NCBI GenBank assembly: GCA_947450325.1 | Contig: CANFUT010000008.1 | Coordinates: 30,211-94,210 of the forward strand | Source: Flavobacteriia bacterium | Lineage (GTDB): Bacteria > Bacteroidota > Bacteroidia > Flavobacteriales_D > Crocinitomicaceae | Direction of reading: 5' to 3' | Length of the DNA stretch: 64,000 bases | Shown: positions 37,852 through 63,905 of the stretch, one piece after another | Numbering within the stretch: the stretch's first letter is position 1 | How the letters are laid out: the number at the start of each line of letters is the position of its first letter | The notes under the pieces: model-generated | The model's database searches: none | The model's input: the letters and a program-made list of their open reading frames with translations, nothing else | Told to the model about the DNA's origin: nothing | Program-made: the position numbers and the translations under genes

Positions 37852-37917
37852 TTTGAATCGTTTTCATGTTTGTCCGATAAAAATAGAATAAATAATGCAA
37901 ATCATTAGCGTCCGCTT

Positions 37918-38207
37918 AAAATCTTTTGTTCCTTTTGCTTGATCAAAACGAACCCAAAAATCAAGGCTGAGTCATCAAGTTAAAGCGCAAATTATCGAAC
38001 GAAATAAAATTCTTTCCTCAAGCGCTTTATTTTAAAAGGTTCTGAAAACGTGATTTTGTCGGTGATCTACTCCACTAGCGTTGCGTAGCTTCCTCCAAAA
38101 GTCTACTTTTTCAGTGCGCCTTTAAAACCCTTTCTTCCAAGGCCGATTGTCTAAAACTATTAATTTACGCACCGCAGAGTTTAAATTACCGCCAACAATT
38201 TGACTCA
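37918..38207 (-). repeat. ~290-bp structured intergenic repeat, copy 1 (reverse orientation)
   Basis: It is the reverse complement of the 48477-48786 and 52153-52460 copies. Shared blocks include CGGCCTTGGAAGAAAGG, CTGAAAATGTAGACTTTTGGAGGAAGCTA, AAATAAAGCGCTTGA and TTTGCGCTTTAACTTGATGACTCAGCCTTGATTTTTGGGTTCGTTTTGATCAAGCA. Confidence 0.85.
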
Positions 38208-38235
38208 TTATTTTTACAGGAACAAAAAGCAATTT

Positions 38236-39543: not shown

Positions 39544-39552
39544 ATTCCTTTA

Positions 39553-40134: not shown

Positions 40135-40164
40135 AAGTAGTTTAACGTTTTTGATTACGACATT

Positions 40165-40337: not shown

Positions 40338-41007
40338 CAAATTTCGATTCTCTTGTTAATTTACTTTTGTCTAAGTTCAAGTCATTACAGAACCAGTCAG
40401 TCAATACTTTTTCAATCTCACTTCTGTTAAATGACTTTGGGTTTCGTCTTGATTTTAGATAATTTTCTCTTGTCATTTTTTCGGCAACTTGTCCAACGCT
40501 TTGCAAGTCAAGTTTGTTTCCGATTTTATTTACTAACCAAAGTCCAGCGATTGAAAAACCAAGTCCTAAAAGTCCGATTTGCCAATTAAAGTAAAGTCCA
40601 ATTAAAGATGCGATAAAAATAGTTGCCAGTGTTCCTGTAACCCAATGAGGCGGGCGCAAAATGTTAAGTTTAAAACCTAAATGTTTTTCTAATTTCTTAG
40701 TTCTTGAACGTCTGCTTTGTCGTGGTAAAAGGTCAACAAGAATGGAATCAGGCGAAATTGTTTTACTGTCAATTTGAAGTGTTGTTGATATTGCATCACG
40801 AAGTTTGTAAAATGCTTGTTGGCTTGTGCAATCGTCTGAATTGTCAAGCTGGATTTTGTTTGCAATGTGGTCGCAAAGTTGTCCAAAGGTCGTAATTTGC
40901 AATAACTCATCACCAACAAACTTGATGTCAAATGAATCCTCAACTTTTTCAAGTAAGTCTTCAAGGTCTTCAAAGTCGATATCTTTAAGTTCGTATTCTG
41001 CTGTCAT
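40333..41007 (-). CDS. hypothetical membrane protein with ACP-like N-terminal domain lacking the phosphopantetheine Ser
   Basis: 'DFEDLEDLLEKVEDSFDIKFVGDELLQITTFGQLCDHI' resembles ACP helices II-IV without a DSL serine. Two TM helices follow: 'TLATIFIASLIGLYF' and 'LLGLGFSIAGLWLV'. Confidence 0.5.
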   Translation of the reverse strand: MTAEYELKDIDFEDLEDLLEKVEDSFDIKFVGDELLQITTFGQLCDHIANKIQLDNSDDCTSQQAFYKLRDAISTTLQIDSKTISPDSILVDLLPRQSRRSRTKKLEKHLGFKLNILRPPHWVTGTLATIFIASLIGLYFNWQIGLLGLGFSIAGLWLVNKIGNKLDLQSVGQVAEKMTRENYLKSRRNPKSFNRSEIEKVLTDWFCNDLNLDKSKLTRESKFV

Positions 41008-41127
41008 AGTATTTCTTGTAACTTGCCGCAGATTTACGCAATAGCGGCAACTTCGTAGTTAGTTGTAAATATATAGAATTATCCTTTTAGTGCTTTCCGG
41101 CTGAGAAAATTAAAACCATTTCCAAAC

Positions 41128-43011
41128 CTACCCCATAAACTCCCAAGCACTCCCATAACTCCCCACACTTTCACTGTGCAACAAAAACGCTCCAAAAAAC
41201 GGATCGTTGCCAAAAGTGACACTGTCGCCCACCACAATCAATTGCGTTTTGGCGCGGGTCATGGCGACGTTCATTCGGCGGTAATCTTTCAGGAATCCCA
41301 AATTGCATTCGTCGTTGGAGCGTACGAGGGAAATGAAGACAATTTCGCATTCTTGTCCTTGAAAGCTGTCCACGGTGGAGATGCGCAGGTTTTTGGGGAA
41401 ACGTTCTTTTGCGAGCGCCACTTGACCAGAGTAGGGCGTAATCAAGGCGCAATGGTCGAGGTTGAATTGGTTTTGCTCCATGATTTTTTCGATGATTTCC
41501 AGTTCGCCCACGTTCGATAAACTGCCACTTTCAGACGCTTGTTCCTCTTGAAAACCAGTTCCTGCGGTGTCGAAATATTGAAAATGAATGCCTGTGTTTT
41601 GCAGAAACGGCGGTGTTTCCAATTTTCCTTCGTAGAAATAATTATTCGGAAAATCTACAATCGCTTGTCGCATGCGGTATTGCGTTCGGAGCAGGTATTT
41701 TTGCGGATGTTTTTCGAGCATCACTTCCAAAAAGGATTTGTTGTAGCCGTTTTTCATCGCTTGCTCTGAAATCACAGTCGGCGGCAATTGCAAATGATCT
41801 CCAGCCAACACCAAACGTTGCACATTTTTGATCGCCACCCAAGCCAAACTTTCCAAACATTGTCCTGCTTCGTCAATCAACAAGGTGTTGAATTCCATTT
41901 TTTGCAGCGATTTGTCGTTCAAACCAACAGGTGTTCCGCAGATTACTTTGGTTTCAGAAATCCATTTTTCAGCATAAAAATCTTGCAAGGCGCGAATTTC
42001 TTTGCGGATGTTTTTCACTTCTTGAATCAACAATTTGCGCTGATCGCGGTCGTCTTTGCCAAAATGACGTTTGTATTGGTGCGACATTTTGCGGTATTCT
42101 TCCGCTTGGATGCGCATTTTTTTGATTTGCTTTTGCTCGTTTCCAAGCGCCATTTTCCCTTCCAAGGTATAAGGCAAAAGTTCAGGCGACATTTTGGTTT
42201 GATTGCCAATTCTCAGTGTCGAAATACCTTGTTTGATGAGTTGCAAAGCGATGTGATCTGTGGCAGCATTGCTCGGCGCGCAAACCAATACTTTTTCGCC
42301 ATTTTTGACCAATTCCGCAATCGACGCCACCAAAGTCGTTGTTTTTCCAGTTCCCGGAGGACCGTGAACAATCACAATCGGTTCATTTCCATTGATTTTC
42401 GAAAGCGCTTCTTGCTGACTTTCATTCAGTTTTTCGTTGATTTCAACGGCATGTTTTTTAGGTTCGGGCAAAAAATCGGCGTTATTTTGGTGCACATACG
42501 TGAAAAATGGAAATGCATCAGCAGATTTTCCGTTGTCCAAAGATTGCAAAACGGCAGTGATGATTTCCTGCGTTTTGGTGTCGGGCGTCAATTTGATTCC
42601 TACACCGTGGTCTTCGATCCAATCTGGAAAATCGGGCGCAAAAATGCGTGCTTCGCCATTGCCACCGTTGATTCCGAGTAAAATTCCCTTGATGGAAGTT
42701 TCATTTTCAAAAAACAATTCGATGGCAGTTCCGTCTCTGAAATTGTCGGTTTGTTGACTTTGCGGAATCTTGAACGAAAATTCGGGATATTCCGCAAAAC
42801 CGTAAGATTTTCGTGTGATTTTAATCGGATGCAAGGCCAATCCATCTCTTTTCAAACTTTTGATTCCGCCAGCATCTTTGACAGAAAATCGTTCAACTTG
42901 TGCTTTTTCTTCAAGTATTAAATTGTCAAGTAAAAACTGAATGTGCGGATCTTTGGCTTGCATGGAATGAATTTGACGCAAATTTCGTAGAATTTTCGGA
43001 AGCTTTGCCAA
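41128..43011 (-). CDS. SF1 helicase, Upf1/DNA2-like (AAA_11/AAA_12 type)
   Basis: 'VHGPPGTGKTTT', 'LLIDEAGQ', 'GDHLQLPPT', 'TVDSFQGQECEIVFISLVRSN' and 'NVAMTRAK'. Confidence 0.85.
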   Translation of the reverse strand: MAKLPKILRNLRQIHSMQAKDPHIQFLLDNLILEEKAQVERFSVKDAGGIKSLKRDGLALHPIKITRKSYGFAEYPEFSFKIPQSQQTDNFRDGTAIELFFENETSIKGILLGINGGNGEARIFAPDFPDWIEDHGVGIKLTPDTKTQEIITAVLQSLDNGKSADAFPFFTYVHQNNADFLPEPKKHAVEINEKLNESQQEALSKINGNEPIVIVHGPPGTGKTTTLVASIAELVKNGEKVLVCAPSNAATDHIALQLIKQGISTLRIGNQTKMSPELLPYTLEGKMALGNEQKQIKKMRIQAEEYRKMSHQYKRHFGKDDRDQRKLLIQEVKNIRKEIRALQDFYAEKWISETKVICGTPVGLNDKSLQKMEFNTLLIDEAGQCLESLAWVAIKNVQRLVLAGDHLQLPPTVISEQAMKNGYNKSFLEVMLEKHPQKYLLRTQYRMRQAIVDFPNNYFYEGKLETPPFLQNTGIHFQYFDTAGTGFQEEQASESGSLSNVGELEIIEKIMEQNQFNLDHCALITPYSGQVALAKERFPKNLRISTVDSFQGQECEIVFISLVRSNDECNLGFLKDYRRMNVAMTRAKTQLIVVGDSVTFGNDPFFGAFLLHSESVGSYGSAWEFMG

Positions 43012-43096
43012 TTAAACTTAAAATACGCGCTCAATATTTGGTAACTGGTTCAATGATTGCATTTTTGAACGTATTTTACCATAAAATTCCACGATA

Positions 43097-45110
43097 TTGA
43101 ACAATCAAGAAAAAGAAAAACAATCGCTTCACGCAATATTTCGAAAATTAGCGCAAGACAGTGAAGATGAAGAATTGCGGTTCTTGATTGATTTGGTGAA
43201 TTACTTCCGACCGAAAGGAAAAAGTCAGAATCAGTATTTTTCAATTCGAGCATTGATCGATTTTTTGAATGAAAATCCAACATTCATTGATCCTTTTCGG
43301 GCTTATTTGTACGAAGTTTTTGAAGGAAAAACGTTCAGAAATCTGCTTTCAGACGCAGGAATTTTGCAAAACACGCACTTTTTTCAAGAAATCAAGAAAA
43401 GGTCGATTGCCAAGATTTTACCGTTTCAACCAGATAGAAATACGCTTGAATTTGTATTGAATCAAATTTTTTATTCGCGGAAAGATTACGATTGGTTGTC
43501 TAAGATTCCGACAGATGAAATGCTCGCACTGTATGAATTGTTGCAGTTGGGTTCGATGTACGACCGCAAAACGGAGCAATCGATGCTCAATGAGTTGCTG
43601 CAATCGATGCGATTGATCATGCAACGAATGAGCGGCAGGGCCTTGGAAACGGATGTCATCAAAATGATTCCAGAATATGAAAATTACGACAGTCCTTTTG
43701 AAGTCTTGGAGAAAGAATTTGATTTGATTGAAGCCACGTTGATTTCCGATGAAACGTATTTTTTGAATTCCGAGGATATTGATTACAAGCAGATTAATAT
43801 CATTTTGGTTCAATGCGAAGATTTTGTCAATCAAGCATATAAAAACAGTTCGCGCTTCGGAATTTCATTGAATGTGAATCAAAGTTTATTGAGAATTAGA
43901 CAACAGATTAAAAGACTGAAATCCATTTTTCCGTATTTGGTACTTGATTTAGAAGAAGATAAAAAGCTCAAAAGCGTTTCTTTTTTCCTGTGTTTGGTGA
44001 AATACAATTGCATGAAAAACAACGTGCGCAAATTGATCAATGAAAGCACGCAGTTGATTGCCTACGAAATCACGCAACACACGGCAAAAACGGGTGAACA
44101 TTACATCACCAAAGGAAGCAATGAATATTTCAACATGTTGTCCAGCGCGATTGGCGGCGGCGTGATTGTGGGAATTTTGTGCGTGATAAAATTGTTGCTT
44201 TCTAAGGTGGAAACGAGCGATTTTGGTCATGCGATTTTGTACAGTTTAAATTATGCGATTGGATTTACAGCGATTTATTTGTTGGGTTACACCTTGGCAA
44301 CAAAACAACCAGCAATGACGGCAGCGGCCTTGATTCAGTCCATTGAAAAAGACCAATTCAATACCAAAGACCAAAAATATAAATCCTTCGCGAATTTATT
44401 TGCAAGGCTTTTTCGTTCGCAGTTTATTGCGTTTGTCGGCAATGTGATTTTCGCTTTTCCGGTGGCACTTTTGATTATTTATGGCGTTGATTACGCTTTT
44501 GGATTGTCGATTCCCGATGAAAAATGGGATCATTTGTTGACTGATTTAAGTCCGATTCATTCCGCGGCGATTTTCCATGCGGCGATTGCAGGATTGTTCT
44601 TGTTCCTGTCGGGAATTATTTCTGGAAGTGTTTCCAATTCAAACAAGCACAACAAATTGTATTTCAGAATTCAAGAAAATCCGACCTTGAAAATGAGTTT
44701 TGGAAAACGAAAAACGGCGCAAATTGCCCAATGGTTTGAACGACGATGGGCGGGAGTTTCTTCCAACATTTGGTTTGGCTTTTTTCATGGGAACAACCGC
44801 TTCCATCGGCATCTTTTTGGGACTGAATTTAGACATTCGCCACATCACTTTTGCCAGCGGAAATCTCGCTTTGGGATTGTACGGAAATGGTTTTCAAATT
44901 TCAAATTCCATGCTTTTTTGGGGCATTTTTGGCATTGGAATTATCGGCTTTGTCAATTTTATCGTCAGCTTTTTACTGTCGCTTTTCCTCGCTTTTCGTT
45001 CGCGAAATATCCCAACAAGCGACTTGAGATTTTTATTCAAAGCCGTTTGGAATCATTTCAAAGCGCATCCGATGTTGTTTTTCTTTCCGGTCAGATCCAA
45101 AAGAAATTGA
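43097..45110 (+). CDS. large polytopic membrane protein (resembles the 'putative site-specific recombinase transmembrane protein' family; tentative), apparently frameshifted
   Basis: Frame 1 is plausible up to about 44785 and then turns into His/Arg/Phe-rich nonsense. The ORF 44700..45110 in another frame continues with a TM-like sequence. Removing one T from T6 (44780-44785) joins ...NIWFGFF to MGTTASIGIFLGLNLDIRHITF.... Confidence 0.6.
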
Positions 45111-46304
45111 TTATGAAACCAAATTAGATTCTCTGTCAAATCGTTTGTAAGAAAACAAAATCGCAAGCAAAGCCAAACTGGTCATGACGCCAAAACTTAA
45201 AAGCAACAATCCTATATCAAGTGTTCCTGCAATCAATTCTTTGGTTGCCAAAACGACATTTACGACTGGAATACAAGCTGTAATTGCATTCAATTCAATT
45301 CCTGGGAAAAATCCGACCATCGCAGGTAAAATCATCACCATATTCAACGGCGTGATAATACTTTGCGCTTCTTTGAAACTTTTCGCGTAAACGGTAATTG
45401 GAATCATGACACCTGCGAAAAATACGATCAATGGAATCAGTAGCAAGTACATCAACAAGATAAATTTTACGGTCAAAATTTGATGGATAATCTCCAACAA
45501 TTTTGGATCCTTAACAATTTGAAAAACTTCGATGGAGAGAAAAATTCCCAATAGAGTGAAAGTTGCCGCCATGACACCTGATAGCACCACAACGCCCATT
45601 TTTCCTAGTAAAATTTGCAATCTTGAAACGGGAGTTGTCAGCAAAGTTTCCAATGTTCCGCGTTCTTTTTCACCTGTAAAAAGGTCAATCGCAGGATACA
45701 TGCAACCGATAAATCCAAAAACGATGAACAAGTAAGGCAAAAATCCACCGATTAATTTTCCGACTGTTTCTTTGTCTGAAGCGACATTTCTGTAGTCAAA
45801 AGCAATCGGAGACAAGGAAGCAGGATCTACTTTCAACGCAACATATCGTTTTGCCTTTTCCATTTCCTCAAAAGCGTTTAAAAATGTTTCGGCGCGCTCT
45901 TTCATGCCGAGTTCGGTTGCGTTGAAGAAAACTTTGAATTTGGAAGTTTTATTTTCAATGGAATTTTTGGCAAAATCTTCAGGCACAAAAACGCCAAACT
46001 GCAGTCTGTTTTCTTGCACGTGTTTTTGAACAGTTGCTGAATCGTGGTAAACAAAAACCTTTTTCTTACCGAGTATTTTCGGCATGTTTTCGATGGTTTT
46101 TACAAAATTCATGTTTTCTGGCGTCACGACAATTCCGATATTCACCGTTTTGTTGGCAACATCTTTGGCGAATCCTTCTGAGACTTTCAAAAATACCGTC
46201 ATAATCACAGGAAAGATAAAAATAGGAATGACAATCATGGTCATCAATGTTCTTCTATCTCTCAGTGTATCTTTGAGTTCTTTCTTAAAAATAGTTGAAA
46301 TCAT
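45111..46304 (-). CDS. ABC-2 type transporter permease (NatB-like)
   Basis: 397 aa with an N-terminal TM, a large extracytoplasmic loop and 5 C-terminal TMs. It overlaps the ATPase gene stop by 4 nt. Confidence 0.8.
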   Translation of the reverse strand: MISTIFKKELKDTLRDRRTLMTMIVIPIFIFPVIMTVFLKVSEGFAKDVANKTVNIGIVVTPENMNFVKTIENMPKILGKKKVFVYHDSATVQKHVQENRLQFGVFVPEDFAKNSIENKTSKFKVFFNATELGMKERAETFLNAFEEMEKAKRYVALKVDPASLSPIAFDYRNVASDKETVGKLIGGFLPYLFIVFGFIGCMYPAIDLFTGEKERGTLETLLTTPVSRLQILLGKMGVVVLSGVMAATFTLLGIFLSIEVFQIVKDPKLLEIIHQILTVKFILLMYLLLIPLIVFFAGVMIPITVYAKSFKEAQSIITPLNMVMILPAMVGFFPGIELNAITACIPVVNVVLATKELIAGTLDIGLLLLSFGVMTSLALLAILFSYKRFDRESNLVS

Positions 46305-47098
46305 ACCGTTTTATTTTCGTTGATTATTCTAATAAATTCTGCGGTCAAATTGGGCGTTTGCATTTCACTTCTGAAATTTTCCATTGTTCCTTGGTGTACA
46401 ATTTTTCCTTGGTGCACAATCGCTAAATCGTCGCACAACAAATCCACTTCACTCATGATGTGACTCGAAAAAATGACCGTTTTTCCTTGGTCTTTGCAAT
46501 CGCGAATCAATTTGATGATATTTTCTGCCGTGATGACATCCAAACCACTTGTTGGCTCATCGAAAATCACAATTTCTGGGTCGTGAATCATCGTTCTGCA
46601 AATGGAAACTTTTTGTTTCATTCCAGTACTCAATTTTCCAATGCGTTTGTTTTGAAAGTGATTCATGTCCAATAAATCGTACAATCTATTTTTTCGCTCA
46701 GTGAAATCCGCTTTTGAAACGCCGTACAAATTAGCATAATATTCAATGATTTCATTCGGCGTCAATCTTGCGTACAAGCCAGTTGAACCAGTCAAAAATC
46801 CAATTTTTTTGCGTGCTTCCTGCGGATTAGCAATTGCGTCGATTCCAGCAATGGTAATTGAACCGTTCGTTGGTTTGAAAAGCGTTGAAAGCATGCGCAT
46901 CGTAGTGGTTTTTCCCGCGCCATTTGGTCCAAGGAGCGAAAATATTCTACCAGGTTCACACGAAAAGCTGATGTCATCCACAGCCACTGCGATTTTAGAA
47001 TCTGTTGCCAATTCTTTGCGTTGCTGCTTGGACAATTCAAATTCTTTTCGAAGATTTTTAACTTCAATCATAGCATCAATTTGAGTAGTATGAAACAA
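46301..47098 (-). CDS. ABC transporter ATP-binding protein (NatA-like)
   Basis: 'LLGPNGAGKTTT', 'LSTGMKQKV' and 'VIFDEPTSGLD'. The likely start is MIEVKNL at 47071. Confidence 0.9.
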   Translation of the reverse strand: MFHTTQIDAMIEVKNLRKEFELSKQQRKELATDSKIAVAVDDISFSCEPGRIFSLLGPNGAGKTTTMRMLSTLFKPTNGSITIAGIDAIANPQEARKKIGFLTGSTGLYARLTPNEIIEYYANLYGVSKADFTERKNRLYDLLDMNHFQNKRIGKLSTGMKQKVSICRTMIHDPEIVIFDEPTSGLDVITAENIIKLIRDCKDQGKTVIFSSHIMSEVDLLCDDLAIVHQGKIVHQGTMENFRSEMQTPNLTAEFIRIINENKTV

Positions 47099-47106
47099 TT
47101 TTAGGA

Positions 47107-48327
47107 TTACATTCCTAAAACCAGTAATTCAATATTTTTATATTTCAGATTAAAAACTTTGCCTAAAACTTCGCTGGTGAGCGTGCCTTTATACATGTAA
47201 ACGCCAGTTCTAAATCCGATGTCATTTTTGATTAATTCTTTGCAACCACCTTGATTTCCCATTTCCAATAGAATAGGAGAGAAGATGTTAGAAAGTGCAA
47301 ACGAAGCCGTTCTAGAAACCCTTGAAGCAATGTTTGGAACACAATAGTGAATGACTTCGTGTTTTGTAAATGTTGGATTGTTGTGATTGGTAACTTCCGA
47401 AGTTTCAAAACAACCGCCTTGGTCGATGCTCACGTCCACAATCACAGAACCTGCTTTCATGTCCATCACCATTTCTTCTGTCACGATACAAGGCGTTCTT
47501 CCCAAAGGAGCACGAATCGCACCGATGACAACGTCCGCTCTTTTAATCGATTTTGCCAAGACTTTTGGTTGCAATACGGAAGTGAAAATTCTTGTTCCAA
47601 TGTTGTTTTGCAAACGTCTCAATTTGGACAATGAACTGTCAAAAACCTTCACAGAAGCTCCTAAACCTAGCGCTGCTCTAACCGCAAATTCACCAACTGT
47701 TCCAGCGCCAATTACTACAACTTCTGTTGGTTGAACACCTGCAACGCCGCCCAGCATGATTCCTTTTCCACTTTCGAATGCAGAAAGTAATTCCGCAGCA
47801 ATTAAAATCGAAGTTGTTCCAGCAATTTCACCCATCGTTCTCACGACTGGATAAACGCCTTCTTCGTCTTGGATGTAATCCCAAGCAACTGCAGTGATTT
47901 TCTTTTGCATCAATTTTTGCAAAATTTCCTTTGGTTGCACAGAGATTTGCAAAGCAGAAATTAGCGTTTGATTTCCTGACATCAATTCCACTTCTTCCTC
48001 AGAAGGAGGAGCTACTTTGAAAATAATGTCACATTTGAAAATTTCTTTGATGTCGTAACAAATTTCAGCACCAGCTTCGCTGTATTCAGAATCCGAAAAA
48101 TTGGATAATTCGCCACTTTTGGTTTCAATCAAAACGCGGTGACCATTGGCAACTAACAATGATACAGCCTCAGGAACAAGCGCAACTCTTTTTTCTTGAA
48201 AGGATGTTTCCTTCGGAATCCCAATATTCAAATTTCCTTTTTTCCTAGCGATTTCAAGCATTTCTTCTTTTGGAAGTAAACTGCCTTCGCTGATAAGCTG
48301 TTTCAGAATATTCGGATCTGTAATCAT
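47107..48327 (-). CDS. alanine dehydrogenase/PNT-family NAD-binding dehydrogenase
   Basis: 406 aa with Rossmann motif 'VVVIGAGTVGEFA' and AlaDH/PNT N- and C-domain architecture. Substrate was not determinable by eye. Confidence 0.7.
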   Translation of the reverse strand: MITDPNILKQLISEGSLLPKEEMLEIARKKGNLNIGIPKETSFQEKRVALVPEAVSLLVANGHRVLIETKSGELSNFSDSEYSEAGAEICYDIKEIFKCDIIFKVAPPSEEEVELMSGNQTLISALQISVQPKEILQKLMQKKITAVAWDYIQDEEGVYPVVRTMGEIAGTTSILIAAELLSAFESGKGIMLGGVAGVQPTEVVVIGAGTVGEFAVRAALGLGASVKVFDSSLSKLRRLQNNIGTRIFTSVLQPKVLAKSIKRADVVIGAIRAPLGRTPCIVTEEMVMDMKAGSVIVDVSIDQGGCFETSEVTNHNNPTFTKHEVIHYCVPNIASRVSRTASFALSNIFSPILLEMGNQGGCKELIKNDIGFRTGVYMYKGTLTSEVLGKVFNLKYKNIELLVLGM

Positions 48328-48476
48328 GTTATTTCACAAGTTATTGTTCGACGTTTGTTTGAGTATTACGAATATACATGCAAAAATCCGTTTATTCAAT
48401 ACCGTTTGCGTAATTTTTTAATCGCAAACACTGTTGGCTATAAAAAAAATATTTTTGCTGATTATTAGCAATAAGT

Positions 48477-48786
48477 TAAATTGTTTAAGATTATTTAAAA
48501 ATTGCGGGTCTTAGATTAGTGGTTTTAGATAATCGGCCTTGGAAGAAAGGTTTTTATAAGTGCGCTGAAAATGTAGACTTTTGGAGGAAGCTACGAAGTG
48601 TCAGCGTAGTAGATCACCGACACTTCCGAAGGATGCAGCGAAGCTAAAATCACGTTTTCAGAAGCTTATAAAATAAAGCGCTTGAGGAATGAATTTTATT
48701 TCGTGCGAGAATTTGCGCTTTAACTTGATGACTCAGCCTTGATTTTTGGGTTCGTTTTGATCAAGCAAAAGGAACAAAAGATTTAT
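48477..48786 (+). repeat. ~290-bp structured intergenic repeat, copy 2
   Basis: See copy 1. It has internal complementary pairs CTGAAAA/TTTTCAG, AAAGCGC/GCGCTTT, CTACG/CGTAG and CTTGAT/ATCAAG. Confidence 0.85.
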
Positions 48787-48812
48787 GTAAATAATAAGAT
48801 TCAAAAGGTTTT

Positions 48813-49241
48813 TTAACCTTGTGGAACTTCTTCCCAAGTGAAAACGCGATTCAAATCTTCATTCAATCGGATTTTTACAAAAAGCGTGTTTTCAGGAAGT
48901 AAATGCAAAACCTTGTCAGGCCATTCAATGAAGCAAATTCCGCCACCATAAATCATTTCTTCAATGCCGATGTCAAATGCTTCTTCTTCAGAATTTAATC
49001 GGTATAAATCGAAGTGAAAAACGGAACCGTAAAACGGACTTTTGTATTCATTTACAAGCGAATAAGTTGGTGAACCATTGGTGTTTTCGATTCCCATTGC
49101 GCGCAAAATATTTTGGATGAAAGTTGTTTTTCCAGCGCCCATTTGACCATCAAAAGCAACAACGGTTGTCTCGCCTAAATTGTCCAAAAGCGATTTGGCA
49201 ACTGCTGGCAAATCGTATATATTTTCTACCACAAATTCCAT
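48813..49241 (-). CDS. tsaE: tRNA t6A37 biosynthesis ATPase TsaE
   Basis: 142 aa with the 'GQMGAGKTTF' P-loop. Confidence 0.85.
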   Translation of the reverse strand: MEFVVENIYDLPAVAKSLLDNLGETTVVAFDGQMGAGKTTFIQNILRAMGIENTNGSPTYSLVNEYKSPFYGSVFHFDLYRLNSEEEAFDIGIEEMIYGGGICFIEWPDKVLHLLPENTLFVKIRLNEDLNRVFTWEEVPQG

Positions 49242-49256
49242 GAATGAAAACCTTCT

Positions 49257-50801
49257 TTATTTTGCGTGCAAAACTACAAAAGGAATGCATAATTCTTCCA
49301 AAGAAATTCCACCATGTTGAAATGTATTGCCGTAATAATTGACAAAATGATTGTAATTATTAGGATAAACGAAAAAGTCATTCTCTTTGGCAAATACAAA
49401 TTCATCTGAAAGCGAAGTTTTTGGTAAAAATGCTTCTTGCGGATGTTTCACTTGGAAAACATCTTTTTCCTTGTAGCTCAAATTTCGTCCAACTTTGTAT
49501 CTCAAATTTGAATTGGTATTTCTATCGCCCACAATTTTCACTGGATTGTTGACTTTCACCGTTCCGTGGTCTGTTGTAATGACCACTTTGGCGCCAGTAT
49601 CCGCAATCTTTTTGAAAATTTCTTGTAGTGGCGAATGCTCAAACCAAGAAACGGTCAACGATCTGTAAGCAGCTTCATCGTCCGCCAATTCGCGAATCAT
49701 TTCCATTTCTGTTCGTGCGTGAGAAAGCATGTCGACAAAATTGTAGACAATTACATTTAAATCATTTTCTTTCAATTGATTGAATTGATCTAACAATTTT
49801 TTTCCTGCTTCGTTGTTGGTGATTTTATTGTAAGACCATTTTCCGGTTTTACCCAATCTGGTCAAGTTTGCATCCAAAAACTCTTTTTCGTGCATGTTTT
49901 TTCCACCTTCTTCGTCTTCGCTGAGCCAAAGTTTCGGGAATTTCTTCTGAATTTCGGAAGGCATTAATCCAGCAAACAAAGCGTTTCTTGCGTAGTGTGT
50001 TGCAGTTGGTAAAATGCTCAAAATCATTTCTTCTTGATCGATATTGAAGTATTTGGAAACGATTGGTTTTAAAATTTGCCATTGGTCGTATCTCAAATTG
50101 TCGATGACAACCATATATACTTTGCCTTCATTCATCAGGGGTGCAACTTTGTCTTTGATGACGGTGTGAATCATTTGTGGCGCATCTTCGTCGCCATTTA
50201 CCCAAGATAAATAGTTTTTCTCGATGTATTTGGCAAATAAAGTATTGGCTTCTTTTTTCTGCATCGCCAAAATCTCGGTCATTCCTTGGTCTTCGATTTT
50301 GTCTAATTCCAATTCCCAATAAACCAATTTTTTGTACAATTCAATCCATTCTTCAATGTCAAGACGTCCGTTCAACTGCATTCCCAATTGTCGGAATTCT
50401 TGTTGATAGTTGGAATTCGTTTTTTGTGAAACCAATTTGCTGTGGTCCAAATTTTTCTTCAAACAAAGCAAAATCTGATTTGGATTCACAGGCTTGATGA
50501 GGTAATCAGCGATTTTTCCACCAATGGCTTCTTCCATGATGGATTCTTCCTCGCTTTTGGTAATCATCACAACTGGAACGAGCGGTTTTTCTTCCTTGAT
50601 TCTTGTCAAGGCTTCAAGACCAGAAATTCCGGGCATATTTTCATCTAAGAAGATGATATCAAAATGTTTATCTCTACTTTTTTCGACTGCTTCCGCGCCA
50701 TTATTTACAGTTTCAACTGAATATCCTTTAGATTCTAAAAATAGAATGTGTGGTTTTAGTAAATCAATTTCGTCGTCTGCCCAAAGAATTTTCGCTTGCA
50801 T
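49257..50801 (-). CDS. porX: PorX-type response regulator (receiver + PglZ/alkaline-phosphatase-like domain)
   Basis: Receiver domain 'ILWADDEIDLL...IIFLDENMPGISG'. The C-terminal PglZ-like domain contains 'VVITTDHGTV'. It is 514 aa. Confidence 0.8.
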   Translation of the reverse strand: MQAKILWADDEIDLLKPHILFLESKGYSVETVNNGAEAVEKSRDKHFDIIFLDENMPGISGLEALTRIKEEKPLVPVVMITKSEEESIMEEAIGGKIADYLIKPVNPNQILLCLKKNLDHSKLVSQKTNSNYQQEFRQLGMQLNGRLDIEEWIELYKKLVYWELELDKIEDQGMTEILAMQKKEANTLFAKYIEKNYLSWVNGDEDAPQMIHTVIKDKVAPLMNEGKVYMVVIDNLRYDQWQILKPIVSKYFNIDQEEMILSILPTATHYARNALFAGLMPSEIQKKFPKLWLSEDEEGGKNMHEKEFLDANLTRLGKTGKWSYNKITNNEAGKKLLDQFNQLKENDLNVIVYNFVDMLSHARTEMEMIRELADDEAAYRSLTVSWFEHSPLQEIFKKIADTGAKVVITTDHGTVKVNNPVKIVGDRNTNSNLRYKVGRNLSYKEKDVFQVKHPQEAFLPKTSLSDEFVFAKENDFFVYPNNYNHFVNYYGNTFQHGGISLEELCIPFVVLHAK

Positions 50802-50851
50802 TGCTTGTAATTTTTTAATTTTGATAAATTATTGACTCTAAATATATTCAA

Positions 50852-52093
50852 TTGCGACCAATTCTCAACAGAAATAACAAGAAGAAAATCTTTAACGACC
50901 CAGTGTACGGTTTTATTACAGTTCCTGACGAGTTTATTTTCGATTTGATCGAACATCCGTTTTTTCAACGTTTAAGAAGAATCAATCAGCTTGGATTGAC
51001 GCATTTGGTTTATCCTGGCGCATTGCACACAAGGTTTCATCACGTCTTGGGCGCCATGCATTTAATGTCGCTGGCAGTGGCTACTATTCGCCGAAAAGGA
51101 CATGAAATCACAGAAGAGGAGGAAAGAGCGGTTTTGATTGCGATTTTACTGCACGATATCGGTCACGGACCATTTAGTCATGCGCTGGAATATGACATCG
51201 TGAACAAAGTCAGTCACGAAGATATTTCTGGATTTTTCATTCAACGTTTGAGTCAAGAATTTGATGGAAAATTGGATTTAGCTTTGTTGGTTTTTCAAAA
51301 TAAATATTCTAAAAAACCTTTTTTATATCAATTGGTTTCTAGTCAATTGGATATGGATCGAATGGATTATTTGAACCGCGATAGTTTTTATACTGGCGTC
51401 ACAGAAGGTCAAATTGGTTCAGATCGCATCATCGAAATGCTGAATGTACATCAAGGAAATTTGGTGTTGGAAGAAAAAGCGATTTATTCAGTTGAGAAGT
51501 TTTTGGTAGCGCGTCGATTCATGTATTGGCAAGTATATTTGCACAAAACGGTAGTTTCTGCTGAATTTATGTTGATTCACATTTTGCGAAGAGCCAAAGA
51601 ATTGATCATTAAAGGCGAGACTTTATTTGCAAGTCCAGCGCTGATGTATTTTTTGACGAATAACATTGAACACGCAGATTTTATAGATAATCCTGTAACT
51701 TTAGAAACTTTCGCACAATTGGATGATTTCGACATCATGTGTGCAGTAAAAGTTTGGCAAAATCATTCTGACAAAGTGCTTTCACTTTTATCGCAAAAAT
51801 TGGTCAATAGAGATTTATTCAAAATTGAAGTTTCAAAAGAGCCTTTTGGTCCTGATAGAATTTTATTGGAGAAAGAATTAGTCAGAGACAAATTTGGTTT
51901 AAATGATGATGAAGTAGATTTCTTTGTTTACTCTGAAATTTTGACAAACAATGCGTATAACCAAAACAAGCAAACAATCAATTTATTGATGAAAAATGGA
52001 GAAATTATCGATGCTTCAAAAGCTTCAGATAATTTGAATATTTCCGCATTGGCACAACCAGTGACGAAGTATTGTTTATGTTATCCAGTTTGA
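50852..52093 (+). CDS. HD-domain phosphohydrolase (dNTPase-like)
   Basis: 'RFHHVLGAMHL' and 'LLHDIGHGPFSH'. The track start is TTG. Confidence 0.8.
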   Translation: MRPILNRNNKKKIFNDPVYGFITVPDEFIFDLIEHPFFQRLRRINQLGLTHLVYPGALHTRFHHVLGAMHLMSLAVATIRRKGHEITEEEERAVLIAILLHDIGHGPFSHALEYDIVNKVSHEDISGFFIQRLSQEFDGKLDLALLVFQNKYSKKPFLYQLVSSQLDMDRMDYLNRDSFYTGVTEGQIGSDRIIEMLNVHQGNLVLEEKAIYSVEKFLVARRFMYWQVYLHKTVVSAEFMLIHILRRAKELIIKGETLFASPALMYFLTNNIEHADFIDNPVTLETFAQLDDFDIMCAVKVWQNHSDKVLSLLSQKLVNRDLFKIEVSKEPFGPDRILLEKELVRDKFGLNDDEVDFFVYSEILTNNAYNQNKQTINLLMKNGEIIDASKASDNLNISALAQPVTKYCLCYPV

Positions 52094-52152
52094 TTTTTAA
52101 TATTCAAAACTTTCCAAGAAAAAAATAGTTTATTCATGTAAATGACTAAAAT

Positions 52153-52460
52153 AAGATTGTTTAAGACGATTTAAATACTGCGGGACTTAAATTTGAGTTT
52201 TCAGACTTCCGGCCTTGGAAGAAAGGTTTTTAAAGGTGCACTGAAAATGTAGACTTTTGGAGGAAGCTAAGAAGCGTTAGCGGATTAGATCACCGACAAA
52301 ATCAGGTTTTCAGAAGCTTTTAAAATAAAGCGCTTGACACGATAAATTTATTTCGTGCGAAAATTTGCGCTTTAACTTGATGACTCAGCCTTGATTTTTG
52401 GGTTCGTTTTGATCAAGCACCGCGCAAGCAGCCACGAAGTGAAAAGGAACAAAAAATTTT
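52153..52460 (+). repeat. ~290-bp structured intergenic repeat, copy 3
   Basis: It is co-linear with copy 2. It has a ~25-nt internal deletion and a ~22-nt insertion (CCGCGCAAGCAGCCACGAAGTG) near the 3' end. Confidence 0.85.
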
Positions 52461-52481
52461 AGGTAAAAGATAATTTGACAT

Positions 52482-52520
52482 AAAAAAAAACGGCTTTAGA
52501 ATTTCTAAAGCCGTTTTTTC
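52482..52520. terminator. bidirectional rho-independent terminator
   Basis: A9-CGGCTTTAGA-attt-CTAAAGCCG-T6. It lies downstream of both the HD gene (+) and the metalloprotease gene (-). Confidence 0.8.
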
Positions 52521-52533
52521 GTTTTTATGATTC

Positions 52534-55500
52534 TTATTTCAAAATCTGAATTTTCTTCACAACTTGATTGCTTGCATTAGAAATTCTTACTGTGTAATTT
52601 CCAGCAGCATAAGCTGATAAATTGATATTTGTTTTAGCATTTTCAACTTTCCAGCTTCCAACCAATCTTCCAGCTTCGTCTCTCAATTCGATATTTTGGT
52701 ATTTCGAAAGATTTTCGCCTTCAATCGTCATCCAACCTTCTACTGGATTTGGATACAAAATTAATAAATCGTCATTTTGTTGATCTTCAAGTCCTGCACA
52801 ACCGCTCACGATAATTTGACCAGTGACAGATTTTGTACAACCATTTTGAGTTACTGAATAAGTAATTGTTTTTGTTCCAATTCCCGCTGTCGCTGGGTTG
52901 AAGTTTGAACCTGATACACCTGTTCCAGAGTAAGTTCCTCCAGCTGGTGTTCCTTGCGTCAATGCAAATGCGGGATTGTAATTACAAACTGTTGGAAAAG
53001 CAGAAAGTGCTGTATTTGGCAAAGGATTTACTGTAATTGTTACACTCGCAGATGCTGTACAATTAGTAACGCCAGTTACTGTATAAGTAGTTGTCGTCGT
53101 TGGTGAAACCGTAATTGAACTGGTAGTTTGTCCACCTGTCCAAGTGTAGCTTGATCCGCCAGCGGCAGTCAATGTAGCACTTGATCCTGCACAAATTGTT
53201 GCATTCGCTGGATTTGAAGTCAAAGTAACATTTTGATTTACAGTTGCAACTACCGCTGTTCTTGCAGATGTACAACCAGAATTCGTAGCAGAAACATAGT
53301 AAGTTGTCGTAGCAGAAATAGATGGAGTGGTAAATGCTGCGCCTGTTCCAATGGATGCTCCACCTGTTGAAGCAGTATACCAGTTCAATGTACCAGCAGA
53401 AGCAGTTGCTGCTAAATTCACAGTTCCAGTTCCACATCTATTTCCTGGCGTTGTACTTGCAACAGTTGGCGTTGGATTTACAGTTAAAACAACCCCTGAT
53501 GAGTTTGTCGTTCCACAAGAATTTGTAGTAACACATCTATATCTGTAAGTTGAAATCGCAGTTGTTGCCCCAGTAATTGTTAATGCGGCCGTTGTTGTAG
53601 TAGAATACGGAGCTGTGTTTGTTAAGTTTGTCCAAGTGGTACCGCCATTCGTACTTACTTGCCATTGGTAAGACGTCGCGTCGGTTGATGCAACGGTAAA
53701 CGATGTATTTGCACTTGCACAAATTGTTGAAGCTGTTGGTTGAGTAGCAATTGCTGGTGCAGATGTGCATCCTGCCGAAATGTATACACCATAATCTTCT
53801 ACATCACCTATTAAAAATGCTGAACCGCAAGTTCTTTTTCCTGATGTAATTGTGGCTGCATCGCTCATCACACGCATTCTCAACAATGCATTTGTCACTG
53901 CTGTTGCTGGAATTGTAACGTTTGCTGAAAGTGTCGTGGTGGTAACAGTTGTTGTAGTACCAATAGCAACTGTTCCAGAATGAACCATTTCACTTGGATT
54001 AGTGAATACACCGTCATTGTTGTAGTCGATGTAAACTTCAAATTTTTGGGCTCCGCTTGGTCCAGCGTTTCCAGTAATTGAGAGATTATAAGTGCTTCCA
54101 GCTTGCACGATCGTATTGTCAGAACAAGTGAAATTCGTATAAGCTGTATTTGTATATTGATCAGTGGTGTTATCGATTGTATTGAATACTACTCGGCTAA
54201 CAGTTTGGGCGTAATTTCCCGAATTGCTTGATGTGGGAGTGCATGCTGTTGTAGTACCGCTGCTCAATACAACAAAATTATTTTCAGTGTGTGTATCAGT
54301 ACCGGCAGCAGTTGTAACAGTTAAAGTTACATTGTAAGAACCAGGAACGGTGAAAGTCATTGTTGGATTTTGAACTGTTGAAGTCAACACGGTTGCTCCG
54401 TTTGTAAAAGTCCAGCTAAATGTAATGTTTGACCAATTTGTTTCAGGTAAGAAAGTATTTGGTACACATGCTGAAATATCCGTAAAAGTAACAGTTTGTC
54501 CAGAGCATATGATTGAATTACTCGCTTGAAAAGCAACAATTGGAGCTGAAACTGGTGTCAATGCTAAATTAGTTGTTGCAAAAAACGAAGCTCTTGGACC
54601 AGAACAAGCTGCTAATGCTCTTGTTTTTTGATTTGCGGTGAACATATTCATGCAATCATCTGAAGAATAATCCATATAATTTCTGGCAAATAATGCATTA
54701 GATGAATTTCCATCACAACTGTTTGTTCCAGTTACGTTACAATCGCTTTGACTTCTCATGTGTCTTGGAATATCTGCACAACAGTCGCCTGCGCCAGATC
54801 CGCAACCATTTGTTGCTGTAGGACAAGTAGTTCCACTTCCATCTCCTTCAAAAGTGTGGTATAAATTCAACGCGTGACCCAATTCGTGCGTAGCAGTCAT
54901 TGAAACACCTGAAGTAAAATTACTAGCCATGATTACTGCGCCATCACTTGATGTTCCGTGTGAACTTGCGAAGTATGCATAACCTTGAACTCCAGCGCCA
55001 CCTTCATTGTTGTCCATTTCTGAAACCAAATAAATATTGTAATATTTCAATTTGTCCCAAGAAGTTACTGCTTTAACTTGCGCATCTGTGATTCCTTGTG
55101 TAGTTGAACTTTGAACTCCATAATTCATGTAAGTTGCATTACCAGTCATACTTACACGGGTAATCCCGTTGGTACAGTTGCCATTTGGATCTCTAACAGC
55201 TAATGCAAATTCTATTTCTACATCAACACCATTTCCATAACCTGCTGTTCCTAAAGTTTTTCTATATCGATTATTCAATTCTTTGATGGCATCGCGAATT
55301 TTTTGATCGCTTACATTTGTTCCAACACCAACAGCTTCGCCTTTGTGAAGCACGTGCACAACAACTGGTATTCTATATTGTGCTGCAGTTTTGGGAGTAG
55401 GTGAATTAGCTATATCTTGAACGTATTGTTCAAACTCTTGCATTCGAGTTGCGTAGGCAGGATCATTCATCATTTGATTGTGAATGATTGCTGAACCACA

Positions 55501-55623
55501 TTTTTCAGTGTTCAACTGATTGAAATTTGCAGGATTGTTTATTTGAGCATTTAAACTTTGGGAGAAAGCAAAAAAAGAAAATGCAAAAACAAACGTTTTA
55601 AGATTTTTAAAACATTTTTTCAT
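52534..55623 (-). CDS. secreted M43-like zinc metalloprotease with GEVED and Ig-like repeat domains and T9SS C-terminal sorting domain
   Basis: 'HELGHALNLYHTF' zinc site, 'GDVEDYGVYI' (GEVED) and Thr/Ala-rich Ig-like repeats. The C-terminus 'LILYPNPV...YTVRISN...KIQILK' is a T9SS CTD. The signal-peptide start MKKCFKNL is at 55623, although the ORF is open to 55659. Confidence 0.85.
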   Translation of the reverse strand: MKKCFKNLKTFVFAFSFFAFSQSLNAQINNPANFNQLNTEKCGSAIIHNQMMNDPAYATRMQEFEQYVQDIANSPTPKTAAQYRIPVVVHVLHKGEAVGVGTNVSDQKIRDAIKELNNRYRKTLGTAGYGNGVDVEIEFALAVRDPNGNCTNGITRVSMTGNATYMNYGVQSSTTQGITDAQVKAVTSWDKLKYYNIYLVSEMDNNEGGAGVQGYAYFASSHGTSSDGAVIMASNFTSGVSMTATHELGHALNLYHTFEGDGSGTTCPTATNGCGSGAGDCCADIPRHMRSQSDCNVTGTNSCDGNSSNALFARNYMDYSSDDCMNMFTANQKTRALAACSGPRASFFATTNLALTPVSAPIVAFQASNSIICSGQTVTFTDISACVPNTFLPETNWSNITFSWTFTNGATVLTSTVQNPTMTFTVPGSYNVTLTVTTAAGTDTHTENNFVVLSSGTTTACTPTSSNSGNYAQTVSRVVFNTIDNTTDQYTNTAYTNFTCSDNTIVQAGSTYNLSITGNAGPSGAQKFEVYIDYNNDGVFTNPSEMVHSGTVAIGTTTTVTTTTLSANVTIPATAVTNALLRMRVMSDAATITSGKRTCGSAFLIGDVEDYGVYISAGCTSAPAIATQPTASTICASANTSFTVASTDATSYQWQVSTNGGTTWTNLTNTAPYSTTTTAALTITGATTAISTYRYRCVTTNSCGTTNSSGVVLTVNPTPTVASTTPGNRCGTGTVNLAATASAGTLNWYTASTGGASIGTGAAFTTPSISATTTYYVSATNSGCTSARTAVVATVNQNVTLTSNPANATICAGSSATLTAAGGSSYTWTGGQTTSSITVSPTTTTTYTVTGVTNCTASASVTITVNPLPNTALSAFPTVCNYNPAFALTQGTPAGGTYSGTGVSGSNFNPATAGIGTKTITYSVTQNGCTKSVTGQIIVSGCAGLEDQQNDDLLILYPNPVEGWMTIEGENLSKYQNIELRDEAGRLVGSWKVENAKTNINLSAYAAGNYTVRISNASNQVVKKIQILK

Positions 55624-55793
55624 AGTTTGAAATTTTAATAGCGTGTGAGCATTTAGCAACCCACATTGTGCAATAGTTAATTTTCTGGTATTAAAATTAA
55701 CATATTTTATTAAAATCTCGAAAAAATATTCAAAATGATATTAACAAGAATTTCACAGTTGAATTTTAGTGAAATTTATTTGGAACATTTTAA

Positions 55794-63464: not shown

Positions 63465-63513
63465 GAAAATCCCAAGTTTTACGACCCTTTCCGGCCTTAG
63501 CAATAAAAGCGTT
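63465..63513 (+). repeat. 49-bp perfect direct repeat, copy 1
   Basis: GAAAATCCCAAGTTTTACGACCCTTTCCGGCCTTAGCAATAAAAGCGTT, identical to 63621-63669. Confidence 0.9.
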
Positions 63514-63620
63514 CTTTGAGACATTAGACTCGAGACCGAAGACATCAGACTGATTTTTTTTGTCTAAAAATCTAATTTCTTATGCTAAAAGTCAATTAAA
63601 ACATTTTCTACAAACACCAA

Positions 63621-63669
63621 GAAAATCCCAAGTTTTACGACCCTTTCCGGCCTTAGCAATAAAAGCGTT
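63621..63669 (+). repeat. 49-bp perfect direct repeat, copy 2
   Basis: Identical to 63465-63513; start-to-start spacing is 156 bp. Confidence 0.9.
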
Positions 63670-63905
63670 AAGTAAAATTCGGAATGCTTGACGGCCAAAC
63701 AAAAGTACTGTTTGAGCATAGATAAACTTAACAATTTACAATAATCGTGGCTGCGAGTTTACTTTTGTTTAGTCACGCATTTGAATTTTATAGCTTTGAT
63801 TGCGTAGCCTTGATCTTTTTTTTGGTTCTTCTTTTTGCATCAAGGCAAAAAAAAGAACAAATCTTTAAACGGACAACAATTTCGCCCCTGAAGAAAATCC
63901 AGCTT

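Follow-up and report, generated by a model that had tools for sequence, protein, structure and literature searches.

The 64,000-nucleotide (nt) stretch of DNA analyzed here, referred to as the window (positions 30,211 to 94,210 of contig CANFUT010000008.1, forward strand, from the Flavobacteriia assembly GCA_947450325.1), contains three copies of a structured intergenic repeat. With a probability of roughly 0.6, we read this repeat as a small-RNA gene family whose stable, structured products end in a triplex-type pseudoknot and belong to a large, uncatalogued superfamily of Bacteroidota. The finding itself is real and is not ordinary repeat DNA: it comprises a repeat family, a conserved fold, the sequence signature of a triplex, a phylum-wide 3′ module, presence/absence polymorphism between related genomes, and the absence of the usual partner proteins. 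An initial annotation of the window had recognized the repeat and its pairing segments; it included neither the triplex-type 3′ pseudoknot, the phylum-wide superfamily and the second family in the same genome, nor the nested mini-inserts as a distinct phenomenon.

Copies, conserved core and consensus fold

The host genome (G000) comprises 3.44 Mb in 42 contigs, is 99.98% complete and has a G+C content of 35%. A blastn search of the whole assembly recovered 16 full copies and one fragment with 74–84% overall identity. Seven of the ten genomes sampled from the genus (this one and nine others) carry 11–20 copies each, and the remaining three have none or a fragment; with these numbers the repeat family is real, far beyond chance. 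The three window copies align over ~300 nt with long identical blocks, and the alignment places all of them where they had been annotated, at 37918-38207 on the minus strand and at 48477-48786 and 52153-52460 on the plus strand. The proposed unit of ~290 base pairs (bp) requires revision: the repeat exists, but its strongly conserved unit is a 217-nt core, and the DNA segment that is polymorphic between genomes is larger. The features of the three copies are listed below, with helices P1–P6, S1 and S2 named according to the fold described afterwards.

37928..38144, minus strand: conserved RNA core of copy 1 (GGCCUUGG...AAAAGGAAC, 217 nt), from alignments, the consensus fold and a metatranscriptome contig
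37903..38221, minus strand: whole segment of copy 1, missing at the orthologous site in sister genomes G001 and G005; boundaries approximate, from flank mapping and a filled/empty alignment (L041)
37924..37970, minus strand: predicted 3′ pseudoknot/triplex module of copy 1, covariance-model match of 67.2 bits
48535..48775, plus strand: conserved RNA core of copy 2 (217 nt plus a 24-nt mini-insert), from alignments and the consensus fold
48429..48800, plus strand: whole segment of copy 2, missing at the orthologous site in G001, G003, G005 and G007
48622..48645, plus strand: 24-nt mini-insert ACTTCCGAAGGATGCAGCGAAGCT of copy 2 at the P5/P4 junction, missing from the G008 orthologue
48733..48779, plus strand: predicted 3′ pseudoknot/triplex module of copy 2, covariance-model match of 67.2 bits
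52211..52450, plus strand: conserved RNA core of copy 3 (217 nt plus a 23-nt mini-insert), from alignments and the consensus fold
52092..52477, plus strand: whole segment of copy 3, replaced by 22 nt in G008 and present in G001, G005 and G007; boundaries approximate (L042)
52419..52441, plus strand: 23-nt mini-insert ACCGCGCAAGCAGCCACGAAGTG of copy 3, exactly between the S1 3′ strand and the S2 3′ strand (pseudoknot loop 3)
52385..52454, plus strand: predicted 3′ module of copy 3 with the insert in loop 3, covariance-model match of 46.7 bits

The copy 1 segment takes in ~75 nt of weakly conserved 5′ region together with the 3′ box AAAAGAUUUUAAGCGGACG, and the empty allele at this site holds ~38 nt of unrelated filler. 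The left edge of the copy 2 segment is sharp, lying immediately 3′ of CGCAAA, and its right edge is ragged.

Conservation was measured on 28 copies anchored on the core. The core, from GGCCUUGG to AAAAGGAAC, shows a median identity of ~90% between paralogues, whereas the 124 nt upstream of it are ~55% identical, barely over background at this G+C content, indicating that the constraint lies on the core and not on the whole polymorphic segment of 290–390 nt. Once inserts are removed, the extracted stretch has a constant length of 380 nt in nearly all copies. A small open reading frame (ORF) considered within the core was ruled out by stops in every frame, in agreement with the earlier statement that no copy contains a credible ORF.

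A consensus fold computed with RNAalifold from 30 copies contains 58 pairs, 13 of which show compensatory changes. Its closing helix P1 (GGC/GCC plus AAG.../CUU...) pairs the 5′ end (GGCC...) with ...AGCC just before the tail, and five or six inner helices are present: P2 (UUUAAAGGU/GCUUUUAAA); P3 (CUGAAAAU/GUUUUCAG); P4 (GA-UUUUG/CAAAAUC); P5 (CUAC/GUAG, followed by a 2-bp stem under a GNNA tetraloop); and P6 (UAAAGCGC/GCGCUUUA, with a variable apical region of ~34 nt). The last element of the consensus is the 3′ hairpin S2. When the pseudoknot stem S1 is added, the fold reaches 63 pairs, with 98.5% of cells paired and 14 pairs changed on both sides; none of 500 shuffles was as high on all five measures, and sliding the partners by 1–3 columns reduced pairing to 37–51%. 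Covariation thus supports the fold, and the internally complementary segments listed in the initial annotation, CTGAAAA/TTTTCAG, AAAGCGC/GCGCTTT, CTAC(G)/(C)GTAG and CTTGAT/ATCAAG, prove to be its helices.

Several features distinguish the two strands. The two pairs beneath the GNNA loop switch between G-C and A-U and between C-G and U-A in 14 and 10 sequences, and three pairs are mostly G-U (columns 55-209, 57-207 and 68-174), which would become C-A mismatches if the other strand were read. The predicted folding energy is -103 kcal/mol for the given strand, compared with -81 kcal/mol for its reverse complement. Because of the frequent G-U pairs and the covarying 2-bp stem under the GNNA loop, the fold is strand-specific and RNA-like. 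Judged from these alignments, the core has the properties of a single-stranded functional molecule made from one strand, for which an RNA is the simplest candidate.

The 3′ module and the families that share it

The last 47 nt of the element read CCUUGAU-UUUUGG-GUUCGUUUUG-AUCAAG-C-AAAAGGAAC and form two helices that overlap in pseudoknot order, S1 (CUUGAY with RUCAAG) and S2 (GUUCNUUUUG with CAAAANGAAC). In copy 1, the corresponding parts are CUUGAU/AUCAAG for S1, UUUUGG for loop 1 and GUUCGUUUUG/CAAAAGGAAC for S2. S2 is a hairpin whose 6-nt loop doubles as the 3′ strand of S1. Pairing was counted on 16 and later on 50 distinct variants from many genera, aligned with a covariance model since MAFFT by itself placed the module incorrectly. 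S1 and S2 are paired in 94.4% and 96.3% of cells, compared with 42–60% in slid controls. None of 500 shuffles matched the observed percentage paired, the number of double-change cells or the covariation score; two further measures, which count pairs or pair types, were unexceptional. Among the 50 variants, compensatory changes occur in seven of the ten S2 pairs, and the three pairs that never vary are all U-A and coincide with the pairs expected to take part in base triples.

The relation of loop 1 to S2 was examined in 39 parsed module variants. Loop 1 length follows S2 length, from 5 nt at 9 bp through 6 nt at 10 bp and 6–7 nt at 11 bp to 9 nt at 13 bp and 10 nt at 14 bp. In register +1, with loop 1 parallel to the purine strand, U lies opposite A or C opposite G at 203 of 226 positions; the other registers gave 131–168. 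The specific signal comes from a second family within this genome, where UUUUUCUUU runs parallel to AAAAAGAAA, and CUUUUCUUU and GUUUUCUUU run parallel to (U)AAAAGAAA, in each case with the C in register with a G-C pair; this C/G coincidence occurs in three family 2 variants. Such a pattern is the signature that a pyrimidine-motif major-groove triplex of U.A-U and C+.G-C triples would leave in sequence. Four U.A-U triples are predicted for the family with the 217-nt core, and 8–9 triples, including C+.G-C, for family 2.

Family 2 comprises at least nine copies of ~220 nt in this genome, with a body opening GGCCUUAGCAAUAAAAGCG. Its copies start GGCCUYAGCAAUAAAAGCG, are closed by GCAAU/AUUGC and AAAGC/GCUUU, and carry a module with a 13–14-bp S2 and a triplex signature of 8–9 layers. 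One copy lies in the window.

63493..63858, plus strand: family 2 copy with a ~155-nt internal insertion, from an nhmmer scan, the fold and a covariance-model match at 63804-63858

This copy makes up part of a 650-bp noncoding tract.

Searches with a covariance model of the 47-nt module extended the distribution further, with matches in 89 of 151 Flavobacteriales genomes (44 of 69 genera; 1–28 per genome) and in 48 of 201 Bacteroidota genomes (30 of 109 genera), other classes included. The bodies upstream of the module differ between families, and the closing-helix plan is common to them. A genome from another taxonomic family of the Flavobacteriales has a tandem array (L105, G029:C46, 300-1279) of ~3.9 units of 251 nt, which open with GGCCUAAGC, close with the module and are separated by spacers of ~27 nt. 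Further copies are abundant at contig ends of the same assembly, and clusters with periods of 230–390 nt occur in several other genomes; such arrays imply that unit RNAs are processed from a precursor. Neither the module nor the family gave a match in phage records, and the sole match in plasmid records was a 49-nt module in CP012863.1 (Persicobacter sp. JZB09), positions 67559-67607; this record is a 358-kb plasmid of a Cytophagales bacterium, in which the 3′ module occurs alone. Most likely, the module marks a large uncatalogued superfamily of Bacteroidota RNAs built on different bodies.

Differences between copies had been described as block indels in the central part. These are real and can be recast as discrete GC-rich mini-inserts of 18–30 nt, which occupy varied loop positions in different copies, in either orientation, and are built of C-GAA-G, GCGAAGC or C-GCAA-G mini-hairpins. 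Four types were distinguished (ACTTCCGAAGGATGCAGCGAAGCT, ACCGCGCAAGCAGCCACGAAGTG, TCCCGATAGCTATCGGGA and AACTTAGCCGCAGGCGATCTCAGCGAAGCT), at loci that include window copies 2 and 3, the G000 copies C22, C39 and C18, and loci L069, L070, L073 and L074. The 24-nt insert of copy 2 consists of two mini-hairpins of the C-GAA-G type; the G008 orthologue has a 100% identical core yet lacks the insert, which is found at a different position in L069, L073 and L023. The 23-nt insert of copy 3 recurs at the same structural position in C18_81731, L004, L069 and family 2 copies, and in reversed orientation at another site in C22 and C39. Polymorphic even between near-identical orthologues, the mini-inserts resemble very small RNA expansion segments that are mobile or convertible.

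Expression, gain and loss, and alternative explanations

Sequence words of the family are present in many freshwater and sludge metatranscriptomes. In the sludge run X34 (74 million letters), contigs were placed on window positions 36000-55900, and the only one with at least 99% identity was a 248-nt contig covering 37910-38157 with one mismatch. It begins 13 nt ahead of the GGCC of copy 1 and stops 18 nt beyond GGAAC; each end contains sequence specific to this copy, and the neighboring genes are left uncovered. In run X36, a 168-nt paralogue contig terminates precisely at the C of GGAAC, and a fragment in run X25 ends 32 nt past the module; other runs yielded short core unitigs summed over paralogues, or mixed signals. 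There is moderate evidence, then, for a discrete and relatively abundant RNA, its ends being only approximate. Of the interpretations offered initially, a small-RNA gene family is favored by this contig together with the strand-specific covariation, the G-U pairs, the GNNA loop and the contrast between a conserved core and diverged flanks.

The history of the copies was traced by mapping their flanks onto sister genomes and aligning ~14 pairs of filled and empty alleles. Most of the 16 sites are polymorphic between species despite flanks that are 90–99% identical: G000 and G008 share copy 2, which four other genomes lack; four genomes have copy 3; and the C20 copy was found in G000 only. The right boundary falls at ...GGAAC or ~25 nt further on, past the semi-conserved box AAAAGAUUUUAGUCGGACGAUAA, and the left boundary is ragged, 75–130 nt 5′ of GGCC. 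The site in empty alleles is often occupied by 20–40 nt of unrelated filler, or by what is left of the 5′ region, as at C12_84751 in G005. The 5′ box TTGTCGGAYnAAA and the 3′ box UAGUCGGACGAUAA were considered as recombination sites and rejected, as both travel with the element and are missing from empty sites. L054 (G008:C35) is orthologous to C12_84751 in G000; downstream of the shared 5′ box CATTTTGTCGGCGAAAAA, G008 has another insert of ~150 nt with the palindrome CCGTCGAATTCGACGG in place of the RNA gene, and this site thus appears to be a swap point for intergenic cassettes.

Paralogues include no near-identical pair, and substitutions between orthologues are clustered, with seven inside the 16-nt P5b hairpin (copy 3 versus G001) and five inside 10 nt of the P6 apical region (copy 1 versus G007), compared with 2–3 differing positions in the rest of the element. 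We read this, on comparative sequence grounds, as an old gene family that would be homogenized and patched by gene conversion, with deletion removing units and recombination carrying them from strain to strain; a trans-acting mobilization of some other kind may also play a part.

The same polymorphism could also reflect a non-autonomous mobile DNA of the MITE, REP or PATE kind, in which the hairpins and triplex-capable end serve single-stranded DNA transposition, for example by a Y1/HUH (RAYT-like) enzyme, and the transcript is incidental. Copy numbers within the genus range from 0 to 20, tandem arrays and contig-end matches occur in other genomes, the C22 copy is flanked by a clean 11-bp direct duplication (TTTAAAATCAA), and the analogous TwoAYGGAY elements are suspected of mobile-like spread (bioRxiv 10.64898/2026.09.22.753630). 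The genome also encodes three Y1_Tnp (RAYT/IS200-like) genes of 157–188 amino acids, at C12:72934-73278 (minus strand), C11:16849-17193 (plus strand) and C30:5736-6080 (plus strand). None of these lies near any copy, however, and each has its own REP-like flanking hairpins (GCCCC-N4-GGGGC, GCTCC-N4-GGAGC and ATCCC-GAA-GGGAT; 2–12 genome matches each), which are short, GC-rich and unrelated to the element.

A target-site duplication of fixed length was not found in the filled/empty comparisons; apart from C22, these showed none or ambiguous A-runs, and this prediction of a mobile element accordingly failed. A scan of the three window copies and the alignments of 28 copies likewise revealed no shared terminal inverted repeats. 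The ragged left edges and the filler or 5′ remnants of empty alleles look like deletion or replacement, and paralogues are never near-identical, and the sequence traveling with the core is ~55% identical between copies; the G-U pairs and GNNA loop moreover indicate RNA, and TnpB, the IS110 recombinase and reverse transcriptase are absent from the genome. The MITE-like reading put forward initially thus holds in that copies come and go between close species, but not in the hallmarks of transposition or in the age of paralogues, which are diverged outside the core, and we consider mobile DNA unlikely. As a separate observation, copy 1 has a perfect 10-bp inverted match, TTTTGTTCCT / AGGAACAAAA, at 38218-38227 and 37924-37933 (left junction and core 3′ end). 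It is private to this copy; a weaker TTTATTCYT box ~95 nt 5′ of GGCC in other copies resembles it.

Gene context was surveyed around all 16 copies, and neither a recurrent neighboring gene nor a fixed orientation to neighbors was found. In ten cases the copy lies 30–100 nt downstream of a co-oriented gene, nine face a convergent gene, and six are located behind a divergent gene. The genes between copies 2 and 3 encode TsaE, an HD-domain protein and a response regulator of the PorX-like type that has a PglZ domain, in agreement with the earlier annotation. In the complete sister genome G001 (C1, a 3.91-Mb chromosome), 11 of ~16 copies lie within 2.49–3.00 Mb, with a switch of strand near 2.5–2.6 Mb (minus below, mostly plus above) that may reflect the replication origin or terminus.

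The ten co-oriented and nine convergent arrangements would suit a 3′ untranslated region (UTR) or intergenic RNA module that is co-transcribed with the upstream gene and whose triplex end stabilizes the mRNA or insulates convergent transcription, in a REP-like manner. A triplex pseudoknot would stop 3′ exonucleases irrespective of the sequence upstream, and a contig of another copy in run X28 does include at least 181 nt of upstream sequence. This role is nevertheless quite improbable: the six copies behind a divergent gene cannot be its 3′ UTR, the X34 contig begins just upstream of GGCC with the upstream gene uncovered, a stabilizer needs no conserved, closed multi-helix body of 170 nt, and tandem arrays of units with 27-nt spacers speak against it.

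Partner proteins were sought with profiles that each gave matches in named control genomes. The TnpB zinc ribbon (PF07282; IscB was not searched separately), reverse transcriptase (PF00078), the IS110 DEDD recombinase (PF01548), Ro60 (TROVE, PF05731) and CsrA (PF02599) all returned 0 matches in this genome. A guide or template RNA of a protein machine, such as a TnpB/IscB omega RNA, an IS110 bridge RNA, a retron/DRT template, a Ro60 Y RNA or a Csr/Rsm sponge, would resemble the element in size, rich structure, multicopy dispersal and hypervariable loops, and the 5′ and 3′ boxes contain the AYGGAY-like words CGGAC and CGGAU. With no gene recurring beside the copies, this reading is largely refuted for the families tested and is very improbable overall. 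The chance that the element is a cis-regulatory leader, a riboswitch or attenuator of the downstream gene, is close to negligible: copy 1 lies 77 nt upstream of a co-oriented 120-amino-acid ORF and triplex pseudoknots are typical of SAM-II, SAM-V and preQ1-II aptamers, but the gene contexts already refute it, as nine of the 16 copies face a convergent gene or gene end and the downstream genes are unrelated, and no riboswitch family matched even at E <= 10. Absent partners, the lack of a recurrent neighbor and mixed orientation together remove the omega RNA, bridge RNA, retron/DRT template, Y RNA, Csr sponge and cis-leader readings.

The small-RNA reading faces difficulties of its own. The triplex signal is partly compositional, since a U-rich loop is compared with an A-rich strand. 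Loop 3 measures 0–1 nt, too short to cross the minor groove of a potential 6-bp S1, so a full-length S1 could not stack coaxially on S2 as drawn. The outer S1 pairs never covary, and in two variants one of them is broken with no compensating change, with CAAG invariant throughout; covariation in S1 is confined to the junction pair (U-A to C-G, 11 times). Either S1 has 3–4 bp with (C)AAG serving as loop 3, or S1 and S2 alternate, and the 23-nt insert placed exactly in loop 3 of several copies in both families would ease the strain. In C39 and L069, loop 1 has been replaced by a palindromic insert, so that these copies cannot form the triplex. The RNA 3′ end may lie beyond the triplex, given that the X25 fragment and X34 contig extend 18–32 nt past the module, and expression is represented by assembled metatranscriptome contigs, mainly from one sample (X34), in which other copies were not seen. 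High core identity could stem largely from gene conversion. Finally, a convincing Bacteroidota -33/-7 promoter was not identified upstream: a conserved (A)GUUUUAGAC box located 7–15 nt before GGCC was tried as the -7 box and rejected, as it lies within the X34 contig, and TTG-type -33 candidates had the wrong spacing.

On the preferred reading, each copy would be a gene for a structured small RNA of ~220–250 nt that acts on its own, presumably in trans, and not as the leader of a neighbor. The RNA would end in an H-type pseudoknot whose U-rich loop 1 occupies the major groove of the U-A-rich S2; this 3′ triplex may cap the molecule against 3′-to-5′ exonucleases and set its 3′ end. The invariant internal loops GGAAGAAAGG, UGGAGGAAGC and GAUCACCGAC would most likely bind protein or another RNA, and specificity may be tuned by the rapidly evolving P5b hairpin and P6 apical region, whose variable loops are candidate seed regions. 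The family is probably old, with cores kept alike by gene conversion and purifying selection, and whole cassettes, including the upstream region, may be gained and lost between species by recombination that needs no dedicated transposase.

A further-reaching proposal is offered only tentatively. The 47-nt tail might constitute an encoded bacterial triple-helix cap (U.A-U/C+.G-C in a pseudoknot) that defines a Bacteroidota-wide, probably cross-phylum superfamily of autonomous multicopy RNAs. Such a cap would resist 3′ exonucleases and may also be a handle for processing from arrays, copying and re-insertion, so that cassettes spread without an element-encoded transposase.

If correct, these readings would add a new structural class to bacterial RNA biology, a triplex pseudoknot tail found in over half of the sampled Flavobacteriales, and would provide a natural 47-nt exonuclease-blocking module for RNA engineering, as well as a handle on the function and spread of TwoAYGGAY and other dispersed structured repeats. 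The family is readily testable, with 16 copies, a clear fold and sites that are polymorphic between cultivable freshwater Flavobacteria; copies in which loop 1 is replaced or loop 3 expanded serve as natural 'mutants'.

Comparison with known systems

At the gathering threshold, Rfam 15 gave 0 matches across the whole window and 11 related loci. At E <= 5-10, a search over copy 2 and nine superfamily loci, with TwoAYGGAY, SAM-II/V, preQ1-II and HEARO included, returned junk matches only. The element therefore matched no Rfam family at any threshold tried, consistent with the initial failure to assign it to a named family.

The nearest described thing is TwoAYGGAY (RF01731), to which the present family is similar in architecture without being a member. 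The extended Pseudomonadota form of TwoAYGGAY consists of multicopy RNAs with an elongated basal stem, extra hairpins and a 3′ pseudoknot, present at a median of 11–23 copies per Pseudomonas genome with strain-variable copy number and associated flanking repeats; its authors suspect mobile-like expansion and Csr/Rsm sponging, leave the function unresolved, and do not mention 'triple helix' or 'triplex' in the main text (bioRxiv 10.64898/2026.09.22.753630). The likeness lies in the 16 dispersed copies, the closing helix P1, the 5–6 helices and the 3′ pseudoknot, and is architectural, with no evidence of homology. The differences are that RF01731 gave no match even at E <= 5-10, that the phylum is another, that CsrA is absent here, and that the consensus fold contains no AYGGAY loop, its CGGAC/CGGAU words being confined to the flanking 5′ and 3′ boxes.

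The module itself shares its strand order (S1 5′ strand, U-rich loop 1, S2 pyrimidine strand, S1 3′ strand, S2 purine strand) with the P2b-P3 pseudoknot of telomerase RNA and with the SAM-II, SAM-V and preQ1-II pseudoknots. As far as sequence evidence goes, it also shares a loop 1 parallel to the purine strand, with U on A-U and C on G-C, and covariation in both helices. It differs from this class in having a loop 3 of 0–1 nt where an A-rich loop of 6–8 nt is usual, in forming the 3′ end of a multicopy RNA, and in matching no Rfam riboswitch.

Extended series of base triples have been described at the 3′ ends of eukaryotic and viral RNAs such as MALAT1 and PAN. As in these ENE-type structures, an encoded A-rich tract near the RNA 3′ end would be clamped by two U-rich strands, and protection from 3′ exonucleases would be expected. 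Here, however, the U-rich strands are joined by a 1–3-nt turn in one hairpin loop, and not placed in a stem internal loop, and the host is bacterial. ENE/MALAT1 also requires the triplex at the mature 3′ end; the contigs observed here end at the C of GGAAC (X36), 18 nt later (X34) or 32 nt later (X25). The tail may be viewed as an encoded bacterial counterpart of the ENE/MALAT1 principle, set on a telomerase/SAM-II-like pseudoknot. The prokaryotic triple helices listed in a 2026 review (PMC13541005) all come from riboswitches or group II introns.

Within the phylum, the FopS small RNAs of Bacteroides thetaiotaomicron offer a precedent for a multicopy intergenic small-RNA gene family. They comprise 14 members, with 12–15 copies per genome across Bacteroidaceae, and use a conserved 5′ seed on susC mRNAs, with RbpB; no closing helix or pseudoknot is described for them (PMC11697453). 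Compared by description only, FopS differs from the present family in acting through its 5′ seed.

The element resembles REP/BIME, ERIC, Correia/NEMIS and PIT/BoxC repeats in being intergenic, multicopy, structured and strain-variable, and RAYT-like genes occur in this genome. REP and REPIN sequences are palindromes of 20–40 nt, single or in inverted doublets, that flank a single-copy RAYT gene. Unlike these, the element spans ~220–390 nt, about ten times a REP, is not palindromic overall, is strand-specific with G-U pairs, and does not lie beside the RAYT genes, whose flanking hairpins are different.

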